Virus record (IMG/VR): IMGVR_UViG_3300007351_000004
Strand: one strand, 5' to 3'
Length of the DNA stretch: 64,000 nt
Source of the DNA: a virus
Shown: piece by piece, positions 32,443 through 34,385 of the stretch
Numbering within the stretch: position 1 is the first letter of the stretch
Layout of the letters: each line of letters opens with the position of its first letter
Translations under genes and position numbers: made by a program
The notes under the pieces: model-generated
What the model was told of the DNA's origin: nothing
What the model saw: only the letters and a program-made list of their open reading frames with translations
The model's database searches: none

Positions 32443-33072
32443 ATGTTATCTAATACAGAATATGAAATTACAAATGAAGATGAGAAATATAGGGTTAAGG
32501 TTGAGTATGAGTCTGTTCAGGGGTGTTTCAGGCAGATAACCTATATTACGGTATACGCTAATGCCGCTGTGGTAACGTGTGATAGCGAAGGATACGCATT
32601 ACAGGTTCGTCCCAACTCTTTCACTGTTTACGTTGTTGATCTTGTTTCTATCCGAAAAGTGGCTCTTGAGGGAAAACAAAAATTTTTACGTGAAATTAAC
32701 AGTGAAACAGTTTCCGTAAAAGATAATATCTTTGATAAGCCCGGCATTGAGAAGGAAATAATCTCAACAAAAGAGTTGCCTAAATTCCGATGGGGTTTGG
32801 GGGGAAACGAGATGATAGGTAAATCAACTATACACGTTAAATCAGGCGCGCAGCATAAACTCGTAGAGGTATATTATCAAATAGTTAATGGACGTATAGG
32901 AGACATTGATTCGATTATTGTTAAAGATACGACAGAAAAAGAGTATGTGCTTTTTTCTGCTGATCTAGAAATAGTGGGAGTTAACGCGGGATACTATTTA
33001 ACCCTTAAAAAGTTCAAAGAAGCAGCCCAGCAGGGGTTAGATAAATTTAAAAAAGAGATTGAAGGATCTTAG
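32443..33072 (+). CDS. Hypothetical protein
   Basis: Open frame, GGAG RBS before ATG 32443. Confidence 0.6.
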   Translation: MLSNTEYEITNEDEKYRVKVEYESVQGCFRQITYITVYANAAVVTCDSEGYALQVRPNSFTVYVVDLVSIRKVALEGKQKFLREINSETVSVKDNIFDKPGIEKEIISTKELPKFRWGLGGNEMIGKSTIHVKSGAQHKLVEVYYQIVNGRIGDIDSIIVKDTTEKEYVLFSADLEIVGVNAGYYLTLKKFKEAAQQGLDKFKKEIEGS

Positions 33073-33339
33073 ACATGCGACTCCTGATGCTCACGCTGCT
33101 AATAACATTGAGTGCCTGTTCGACGTGCGTCGTTTCAGATCCAGATACATATCTATATGATAGGCTGATCAGTGCGGGGCCGATATCAGCATAGAATAAT
33201 TCCCGTTCGGGTGGGTAGTTTGCCAGTCCTGCGCTATCAGTGGTGTAGCGGATGCCAGAAATATATGCCGCCCCATCTGTTTGCGAGTTACAAAAGTGTA
33301 TACTGTCGGAAATGCAAACAGAAAATTAACGAAAAGCAC

Positions 33340-33368
33340 TTGACAAAGCATAATTAGCATGATATAGT
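33340..33368 (+). promoter_or_regulatory. Sigma70 promoter of the RNA operon
   Basis: TTGACA-17-TATAGT; predicted +1 about 33375, the first G of the tmRNA-like RNA. Confidence 0.8.
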
Positions 33369-33374
33369 ATGTAC

Positions 33375-33462
33375 GGGTCTGAAGGTATTCGACAGGGAGA
33401 AAGTCAGCAGTTTAATCGCTGGCGAGTAAATCTGGACCGGGGCTCAATTCCCCGCAGATCCA
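33375..33462 (+). ncRNA. ssrA: Mini-tmRNA (tRNA-like domain only)
   Basis: GGGTCTG/CAGATCC acceptor with G3:U70 and A73; stemless D-loop ending TTCGACAGGG; 3' TGGAC-CGGGG-CTCAATT-CCCCG; only ~35 nt internal, no tag frame. Confidence 0.8.
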
Positions 33463-33465
33463 AAT

Positions 33466-33537
33466 GCCTGCTTAGTTTAACTGGCAAAACGCGCCATTTG
33501 TACTGGCGGAATCTCAGTTCAAGTCTGAGAGCGGGCT
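33466..33537 (+). tRNA. tRNA-Thr (anticodon TGT), CCA not encoded
   Basis: GCCTGCT/AGCGGGC acceptor, CGCCA-TT TGT AC-TGGCG, CTCAG-TTCAAGT-CTGAG. Confidence 0.9.
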
Positions 33538-33539
33538 TT

Positions 33540-33918
33540 GGTTGGTAGGAGGTTGGCTTAGAAGCAGCCATCCTTTAAAGAGTGCCGAGTGGAAGAGAGC
33601 GCCGATCTAACCAGTCGGGTAATCTCAAGTTCTGGTGCATGAGACGGGTGGTGCCCGGTAGCCGTGTCCCATCGGTATGTTGCGAAACCAGAATACCACA
33701 CGGAATGGTAGCACTCTAGGGCGTCCTAATAGAGAACCCGTACTATGTTTTTCCTTCTCTAGAACGATGAACTAGAGCAAGCCAGGGGTTGCTTGTATGT
33801 TTGCATAGTACGGGAGGAAATGCGAATTAACCTGTCGGGATCGGATATGGGATGGTCTTGGCAGCAATGCAAGCAACGTGGCCGTCTGAGGCTTTGGCGT
33901 AACAGCACACTACCAACC
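33540..33918 (+). ncRNA. 23S rRNA GTPase-associated-centre (H43/H44, L11 site) mimic split by a 313-nt structured insert
   Basis: 33544-33583 + 33897-33914 join to GGTAGGAGGTTGGCTTAGAAGCAGCCATCCTTTAAAGAGT|GCGTAACAGCACACTACC; closed by 9-bp GGTTGGTAG/CTACCAACC stem. Confidence 0.88.
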
Positions 33919-33920
33919 TT

Positions 33921-34063
33921 TTGCGACTGAACCTCTGCTAGTCGGAGTAGTAGGCCGCAACCGGGGGCGCTGGGCTCCCTTGTTATCCGCCCCAGCGATC
34001 TTGGTCTGTCGTTGGGTTTGATATGGGGCTTTGCCGTGTGCCCCAGACCAGAAACGCGGCAAA
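33921..34063 (+). ncRNA. Structured RNA segment with hairpins and a pseudoknot
   Basis: TTGCG/CGCAA, CGCTGGG/CCCAGCG, GGTCT/AGACC, GGGGC/GCCCC, loop TTTGCCG pairing with CGGCAAA. Confidence 0.5.
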
Positions 34064-34385
34064 ACTTTACATAAAGGATTGAACGTGGTTCCTCTACTCG
34101 CTTTCACTCTGCTGGTTTATATCGTTATCGGCTTTTTAATTATGCCCTGGTGGAATGCCGTGTTCGCTTTGTTTGCGGCTTTCTTGGGGGCGATGTGGGC
34201 TAAAGCACATGCCGAAGAAGATAATCGTTAAAAAATTTGGAGACGTGGATCTGGTGGTAACTAAAAATGTGGAAATGTTCTTAGTGTTGTCGCGTTGGTT
34301 GCGGTTTCGCATCTGGTTGGGGCTGAGATTAATTCATCTGGCGTCATTTGTGATGGGCATGGGATTTGAGGTAAAGGAAAAGTAG

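Follow-up and report, generated by a model that had tools for sequence, protein, structure and literature searches.

This locus raises the question of why a phage-borne, near-exact copy of part of 23S rRNA is broken at a single base, and of what the 313 nt that lie in the break might be. The window, by which is meant the whole stretch of 64,000 nt of viral DNA analysed (IMG/VR record IMGVR_UViG_3300007351_000004), comes from a complete 81-kb phage genome with terminal repeats. Positions 33547–33581 of the window are identical to E. coli 23S 1054–1088 at 33 of 35 bases (blastn against rrlH), both sides of the 1058/1080 pair being changed. The copy breaks after AAAGAGU at 33583, the equivalent of U1090, and resumes with GCGUAACAGCACACUACCAACC at 33897, the equivalent of G1091, with the 313 nt of 33584–33896 in between. 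The initial annotation had set the insert at exactly these coordinates and at U1090, in agreement with both the sequence and the blastn comparison. It had read the insert as an atypical self-splicing intron or new ribozyme class, with a large phage ncRNA of the GOLLD/ROOL type, carried in H44, as the fallback.

Genomic setting and family of the split rRNA copy

The broken copy belongs to a non-coding cluster on the + strand (33340–34020), the features of which are collected in Table 1. The first product of the cluster promoter is a tmRNA-like RNA of 89 nt (33375–33463), reduced to the tRNA-like domain and without a tag reading frame, which scores 41.2 bits with the Rfam tmRNA model (cut-off 47, E 8e-15). 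Downstream of the rRNA mimic are some 100 nt of non-coding, GC-rich hairpins (33920–34020) with terminator-like stems at 33963–79 and 33991–34016, and these may represent a third RNA or just the terminator region. In the 3' half of the mimic RNA itself, the phage-specific sequence AGCACACUACC stands 3' of GCGUAAC.

Table 1. Features of the non-coding cluster and of the mimic RNA that it contains, in window coordinates.
Feature	Position	Strand	Details
Sigma-70-type promoter of the RNA cluster	33340..33368	+	TTGACA, 17-nt spacer, TG-TATAGT; extended -10; 11/12 consensus matches
tRNA-Thr(UGU), directly 5' of the mimic RNA	33466..33537	+	Rfam tRNA 56.7 bits, and ARAGORN
GTPase-associated-centre copy, 5' half (H42 strand, H43, H44 5' strand; end = U1090 equivalent)	33540..33583	+	
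P1 5' strand GCC	33584..33586	+	Partner 33890-33892; followed by GA 33587-88 opposite GA 33888-89
P2, enclosing variable domain 2	33589..33699	+	GUGG 33589-92 with CCAC 33696-99
Pseudoknot strand UCCCAU in the domain-2 loop	33666..33671	+	Partner AUGGGA 33847-33852 in the P6 loop
P3 5' strand ACGG	33700..33703	+	Partner CCGU 33882-33885
P4	33711..33782	+	33711-12 and 33714-19 with 33772-77 and 33781-82; 5' strand contains GCACUCU
Anti-SRL strand	33737..33747	+	Complement of 33804-33814 (three stem bases and AGUAC of the loop copy)
P5 5' strand	33790..33796	+	Partner 33869-33875
Sarcin-ricin-loop (23S H95) copy	33799..33827	+	7-bp stem, bulged-G motif AGUA/GAA, C-G pair closing a GGGA tetraloop
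P6 hairpin	33832..33864	+	33832-39 with 33857-64; loop carries a pseudoknot strand
UUUG linker from P1 to the H44 loop	33893..33896	+	Nearly invariant
GTPase-associated-centre copy, 3' half	33897..33918	+	H44 loop GCGUAACAGC (A1095 loop) and returning H44/H42 strand

To survey related RNAs, a pattern derived from H43 was used, which lies 5' of the insertion point and is hence blind to the insert. This matched at least 117 viral loci and, among the matches listed, copies with readable downstream sequence break at the same base, the one exception being L011, a contiguous copy resembling the GTPase-associated centre (GAC) that is itself divergent. Measurements were made on 78 RNAs from viral contigs, namely the non-identical members in which both ends could be located. 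All 78 carry an insert at the U1090/G1091 position, the sequence GCGUAAYAGCAC(AC) returning 28–350 nt after the 5' half, and in nearly all of them GCGUAA is preceded by YUUUG or UUUAG. The window fits this family of GAC mimics, with its H43 and H44 halves, the branch at 1090/1091, a P1 of GCC/GGC and UUUG at 33893–96.

The RNA family is essentially confined to viral DNA, the subfamily pattern having been met in three MAG contigs among approximately 185,000 species genomes. In most related loci tRNA genes abut the mimic RNA within a few bases on one or both sides; phage tmRNAs are located nearby in three of these loci, and in phage pf16 the mimic RNA, which is unannotated, fills the gap between tRNA-Asn and tRNA-Pro. 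As tRNAs adjoin it, the whole RNA including the insert would be released by tRNA processing. Short forms of the RNA, which have no copy of the sarcin-ricin loop (see below), are present in the cultured phages pf16, UNO-G1W1, CBB, XacN1 and Aeromonas 4_4572, and a BLAST comparison with named phages returned only such short forms and a 23S fragment of Pd_22F, with no cultured phage carrying the long form. The latter fragment (L416; Paenibacillus phage Pd_22F, record 83275–84713) is a contiguous, genuine-looking 23S stretch of the GCUCAC type near the end of the record, running into domain II; it could stem from host DNA that was captured or from a chimeric assembly, and is not a member of the family.

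A number of individual loci also have features of their own. One viral contig (L042:5138–5750) has two GAC-mimic RNAs in tandem, some 320 nt apart and with different middle domains. ARAGORN predicts tRNAs with a CUA anticodon (amber suppressor type, labelled tRNA-Pyl) at L341:3923–3995 and L400:5287–5358, in arrays beside long-form mimics. In Xanthomonas phage XacN1 (L414; record 149836–151283) the short-form mimic starts 16 nt past the stop codon of an annotated 2'-5' RNA ligase gene.

Retention of the insert in the mimic RNA

In the 78 measured RNAs the two ends of the insert are base-paired to each other, with a mean of 4.0 consecutive pairs counted from the junction (0.9 in controls with a shifted 3' end), and the sequences of this closing helix are very diverse. 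Because its ends pair at the junction with such diverse sequences, the insert is a branch of H44 and not a helix that guides exons. It is, moreover, universal and in many members only 28–100 nt long, which is too short for a ribozyme, and therefore it does not behave as a sporadic mobile intron. The sequence GCACTCT at 33711–33717 is complementary to 33579–33585, as had been pointed out, but the role of internal guide ascribed to it did not hold, since RNAalifold with 14 sequences shows it to be the 5' strand of P4. In the closest relative, L340, the first base of the insert is altered (G33584A) and a compensating change of C to U occurs at 33892, while GCACUCU is the same as in the window.

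The region 33050–34120 was searched by cmscan against all 4227 Rfam families with permissive filters, and gave no group I, group II, GOLLD, ROOL, small-ribozyme or riboswitch match at E ≤ 10. The catalytic core of group I introns (P3–P9, with a G-binding site in P7) was not found, there being no Intron_gpI match and a different topology derived from covariation, nor were domain V or the boundaries GUGYG...AY of group II introns, as no group II model matches and the insert starts with GCCGA and ends with UUUG. The view that group I and group II features are lacking is thus upheld, as is the statement that the insert has no ORF, given that no conserved one is present. With regard to the fallback reading, an ornate ncRNA branch of H44 is what the family displays, but the kinship with GOLLD and ROOL is not borne out by Rfam at this threshold.

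Contigs from three libraries recorded as RNA, each from a different study, cross the insert unbroken, both junctions included. One of these extends over 33557–33923 with one mismatch, and the others over 33592–33840 and 33649–33874. No joint skipping the insert was reported in these contigs, and the flanking phage genes are without depth there; as the contigs are assemblies, DNA carry-over or a rare spliced form could pass unnoticed in them, and they do not show the transcript ends.

With these data the readings that remove the insert can be weighed. A self-splicing intron, group I-like or of a new class, with GCACUCU as its guide, would join the two halves of the rRNA mimic at a junction reading AAAGAGU-GCGUAACAGCACACUACC, and it is true that H44 is contiguous only with the insert removed, that a 7-nt complement of the 5' junction exists, and that a U precedes the insert and a G ends it, just as the initial annotation had described. 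Such an intron is nevertheless exceedingly improbable given that nothing of group I or group II matches at E ≤ 10, that every measured member has an insert, some of 28 nt, with no matched intron-less alleles found, that the paired ends covary, that the L340 change is compensated at 33892 with the supposed guide, the 5' strand of P4, staying constant, and that the RNA contigs are unspliced and free of a joint. It is also highly unlikely that the insert is an intervening sequence excised by a nuclease without ligation, as by RNase III in fragmented 23S rRNA, to leave a GAC mimic in two pieces. Intervening sequences of this kind are known in 23S rRNA, and the halves could hold together through H42 and H44; however, with 3 bp and a tandem G-A the helix at the base of the insert falls short of the long duplex required by RNase III, the interior shows strong conservation and includes a functional-looking loop copy, and the RNA-library contigs span both junctions. 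The insert is not supported as an intron or as a new ribozyme class, being universal, paired at its ends and unspliced in RNA contigs; the apparent intron is a defining part of the RNA family, and not an interruption of it.

Fold of the middle domain and the sarcin-ricin-loop copy

The fold of the insert was examined with a subfamily set of inserts starting N-N-C-G-A-G from viral and metagenome contigs, comprising 80 non-identical RNAs. In this set P1, P2 and P3 meet in a three-way junction at the base of the insert; each of the three occurs in many sequence combinations, and in 68 of the 80 RNAs all eight P2 and P3 pairs are of standard type. For P1 more than 10 complementary combinations are found (ACC/GGU in L340), P2 takes forms such as GCGG/CCGC, GAGG/CCUC and GGGG/CCCC, among others, and P3, ACGG/CCGU in the window, is AGGG/CCCU, CGGG/CCCG or AGGA/UCCU in relatives. 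A K-turn at the base of the insert was also tried as a candidate and rejected, as its strand registers do not fit and covariation puts GUGG in P2. Scans of viral contigs with exact 14-base insert patterns were likewise discarded, as they gave approximately 90 matches each, which is the chance level, with only L063 and L094 being real.

Analysis by RNAalifold of 14 RNAs of the window's clade yielded 50 pairs, 33 of them with compensatory changes, and adds P4, P5 and P6 to the junction. Compensatory changes are found among the P4 pairs, and P5 has many pair types. L340 differs from the window at 19 positions, and ten of these differences pair up as five double compensatory changes, of which three fall in P6 and one each in P1 and P5 (U33794C matched by A33871G, in P5); a further three turn a wobble into a Watson-Crick pair. 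The pseudoknot between the loops of domain 2 and P6 was supported by a position-restricted search at the aligned sites, in which only Watson-Crick pairs were counted: 5–6 bp are present at the same aligned places in 11 of the 14 relatives, in six sequence versions. The longest helix joining domain 2 to the 3' part was also sought without positional restriction, and here the result was no better than in shuffles. Thermodynamic z-scores are modest (whole RNA, -2.8; insert, -1.9); covariation is strong. The unconstrained minimum-energy fold of the window RNA contains P5, the sarcin-ricin hairpin and a P6-like stem.

A number of pairings had been listed from the window alone, and the relatives separate them. 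The long-range GTCCCAT/ATGGGAT (33665–71/33847–53) is sustained by the six versions of its partner sequences, and TTCTGGT/ACCAGAA, which occurs in the minimum-energy fold and is identical in the only close relative, is a plausible pairing. Others are replaced by competing helices: the conserved partner of 33772–77 is the upstream copy at 33714–19 and not the local one of the CTCTAG/CTAGAG hairpin, GCUUG at 33791–95 pairs, as L340 shows, with the downstream CAAGC at 33870–74, and the bases of TACCA/TGGTA and of its proposed CACGG kiss make P2 and P3. CCGATC/GATCGG is lost in L340, and the GCAA-tetraloop and terminal hairpins clash with P6/P5 and with P3/P1, respectively. As a separate observation, a conserved junction motif at 33706–33717, GGUAGCAC(UC), is similar in sequence to the 3' strand of H44 in the copy (AACAGCACAC) and for this reason looks complementary to the AGAGU junction; the likeness could reflect a competing pairing or an old duplication.

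The hairpin at 33799–33827, which was absent from the initial annotation, consists of the stem UUUGCAU/AUGCGAA followed by AGUA, C, GGGA, G and GAA (AGUAC-GGGA-GGAA), and matches E. coli 23S 2653–2665 at 12 of 13 bases. It is present in 42 of 50 long-form relatives, many of which have the exact 12-base sequence that is universal in rRNA, AGUACGAGAGGA. Among 34 distinct relatives, standard pairing is seen in 85% of the hairpin cells (shuffles, 58.9%), covariation reaches a score of 0.714 (shuffles, 0.199, with 0 of 500 as high), and pairing falls to 31–50% when the partner strand is slid. The bulged-G motif is formed by AGUA (33807–10) opposite GAA (33817–19). In the same 34 relatives the U, A and C of AGUAC and the G closing the loop are invariant, and conservation is at least 90% for the G of AGUAC and for the G and A that come next (columns 19–20). 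The C33811–G33816 pair does not vary; the tetraloop is GGGA in the window, while most relatives have GAGA and a few a non-GNRA loop, with AAGA, CAGA, AGAA, GAAA and CAGC being the other versions observed. The position beside the motif is mostly non-canonical, as is U2653–C2667 in rRNA.

When the 80 RNAs were compared with E. coli 23S, regions 1040–1100 and 2640–2665 were the only ones enriched in matches. Further 23S pieces were sought inside the insert, and the search gave only an 11-base identity (TGCCCGGTAGC, 33652–33662) to E. coli 2713–2723, which is at chance level (E 0.29) and where no family feature was seen. Judged from the sequence comparisons, the middle domain carries a structural copy of the sarcin-ricin loop. 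This copy is an add-on and not the core of the family, because the short-form relatives, those of cultured phages included, are without it.

The loop copy also has a competing partner upstream, the anti-SRL strand. In the alignment of 14 sequences, 33737–47 and 33804–14 are 84% paired, against 20–42% when slid, with compensatory changes at three pairs; this is the 11-bp CCCGTACTATG/CATAGTACGGG helix that had been proposed for the window, and it is found with 8–12 bp in the 14 relatives. The anti-SRL pairing and the sarcin-ricin hairpin are mutually exclusive, both covary, and constrained folds place the two states within approximately 4 kcal/mol of each other. Of the 42 long forms, about 16, all in the window's clade, have this strand at a distance of 69–75 nt on the upstream side of the motif, and the other clade lacks it. 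In three relatives (L299, L304, L397) the strand follows the departures of its own loop copy from the universal sequence, and because it tracks the deviations of its own RNA the pairing is in cis; a trans-acting antisense directed against the host loop is ruled out on the same grounds. Two pairings that are both selected yet exclude each other are suggestive of a mask, a timer of folding or a switch.

The last of these could be taken further, with the RNA as a regulatory switch in which the alternation of anti-SRL pairing and hairpin would respond to a ligand, to a protein or to temperature and so act on downstream genes or on how the transcript is processed. The covariation of both pairings and the closeness of the two states in energy would fit this, but the strand is missing from about half of the long forms, the RNA is bounded by tRNAs in arrays and is not set before a particular gene, and Rfam has no riboswitch that matches 33050–34120, which makes a switch of this type very unlikely. 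It is somewhat easier to imagine, though still improbable, that the insert is a scaffold that gives structure or stability to a mimic of the L11 site, or allows it to multimerise, and that the hairpin is a generic block of S-turn and tetraloop. Modules of the S-turn type are common to many RNAs, relatives differ in their tetraloop, the short forms manage without the hairpin, and other subfamilies have AGUA...GAA modules with long stems. On the other hand, many relatives have all 12 universal bases of AGUACGAGAGGA, the RNA that contains the hairpin copies the partner rRNA element almost identically at its ends, and across the whole of 23S the enrichment in matches is limited to these two regions.

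Possible function and relation to known systems

To our knowledge, every translational GTPase has to make contact with two elements of rRNA, namely the GTPase-associated centre and the sarcin-ricin loop. H42–44 is bound by uL11 and the stalk, RelA activation requires uL11, and these rRNA elements are attacked by antibiotics (thiopeptides) and by toxins (ricin, sarcin, VapC20, Tre23). Munishkin and Wool reportedly observed in 1997 that isolated oligonucleotides of the two sites bind EF-G. Against this background we favour, with a probability of roughly 0.6, the reading that the 313 nt are the retained central domain of an approximately 380-nt phage ncRNA, with the GTPase-centre copy at its ends and the sarcin-ricin-loop copy in its middle, and that this RNA would serve as a decoy or sponge.

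According to this proposal, transcription would begin from the promoter at 33340, and the RNA of approximately 380 nt (about 33540–33918) would be freed from a tRNA-punctuated transcript, with processing of tRNA-Thr setting its 5' end. Its ends fold as the near-exact copy of 23S H42–44, the site of uL11 and thiostrepton, and the middle domain branches from H44 between the U1090 and G1091 equivalents, closed by its own 3-bp helix and tandem G-A. A conserved scaffold made of the P1–P3 junction, P4–P6 and the loop-loop pseudoknot displays the sarcin-ricin-loop copy, and the RNA as a whole thus replicates, apart from the ribosome, the site at which translational GTPases and rRNA-directed toxins dock. 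It might soak up a host protein that recognises the GTPase-centre/sarcin-ricin site, for which the candidates would be a defence toxin that modifies or cleaves rRNA, uL11, the uL10–bL12 stalk, a translational GTPase or RelA; or else it might offer a protein recognising the site an alternative substrate. In the window's clade the 5' half of the loop copy can be taken up in pairing with the upstream strand, which would mask the loop or time its display.

Within the decoy reading, a counter-defence decoy for rRNA-directed toxins is conceivable but rather doubtful, and a role in capturing uL11 or the stalk, or else a GTPase or RelA, is a little more doubtful still. Tre23 ADP-ribosylates H44 at 1095–1098 and VapC20/26 cleave the sarcin-ricin loop (PMC8661411), and other RNA-directed ADP-ribosyltransferases act on tRNA and tmRNA (bioRxiv 10.1101/2024.02.24.581848). 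As GAGA is replaced by other tetraloops in some members, not every member could serve as a decoy for an enzyme that depends on A2660 or on the G2661–A2662 step. Phage-encoded uL11 or bL12 was looked for and none is found in the window's genome, which neither helps nor hurts the decoy reading. The tmRNA-like stump and the tRNA beside the mimic fit a 'translation-RNA decoy' cluster, this being an association only. A bolder version, which we hold tentatively and at somewhat less than even odds, is that of a working miniature of the factor-binding site, in which the scaffold would hold the loop copy beside H43/H44 as in the 50S subunit, the RNA would trap or mis-activate a GTPase or RelA or divert toxins, and the anti-SRL strand would be a mask controlling display of the loop.

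No description of such an RNA was found in Rfam or in the full-text searchable literature. If the proposal is correct, a widespread, phage-restricted RNA copying both sites would constitute a new viral route for interfering with translation or with defence. It would also provide a natural 'ribosome-in-pieces' of approximately 380 nt for the ribosome-free study of factor binding, GTPase activation and toxin recognition.

Compared with the GTPase-associated centre of 23S rRNA (H42–H44, E. coli 1051–1108), the flanks of the insert are near-identical and all bases known for the tertiary fold of the 58-nt domain are kept. The branch point of the mimic lies within H44 of this copy, and it is here that the two differ, as rRNA is contiguous at 1090/1091 whereas the phage RNA always has a branch there and a conserved UUUG linker. 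[quoted passage not shown] Unlike the rRNA loop, which is located in domain VI, the phage copy sits in an RNA of approximately 380 nt, has a variable tetraloop (GGGA in the window) and a stem of unrelated, freely covarying sequence, and can in the window's clade be sequestered by an upstream strand.

The likeness to group I introns in rRNA genes lies in the rRNA-like setting, the U before and the G at the end, the length of a few hundred nt and the high degree of structure; the phage insert differs from them in having no maintained P1 guide pairing or recognisable catalytic core, in being universal and in being retained in the RNA. GOLLD and ROOL are also large, intricately folded, non-coding, phage-borne RNAs, often found beside tRNA genes, but the mimic matches neither of their Rfam models and is built around copies of two rRNA functional sites. 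In imitating a translation RNA to capture or satisfy a protein, the mimic resembles the rRNA-mimicking leaders of mRNAs, to which ribosomal proteins bind, and the phage tRNAs that have been proposed as replacements or decoys against anticodon nucleases. Those leaders copy one protein site and act in cis for feedback, whereas the mimic is a stand-alone viral RNA that brings two distant rRNA sites together on a new scaffold.
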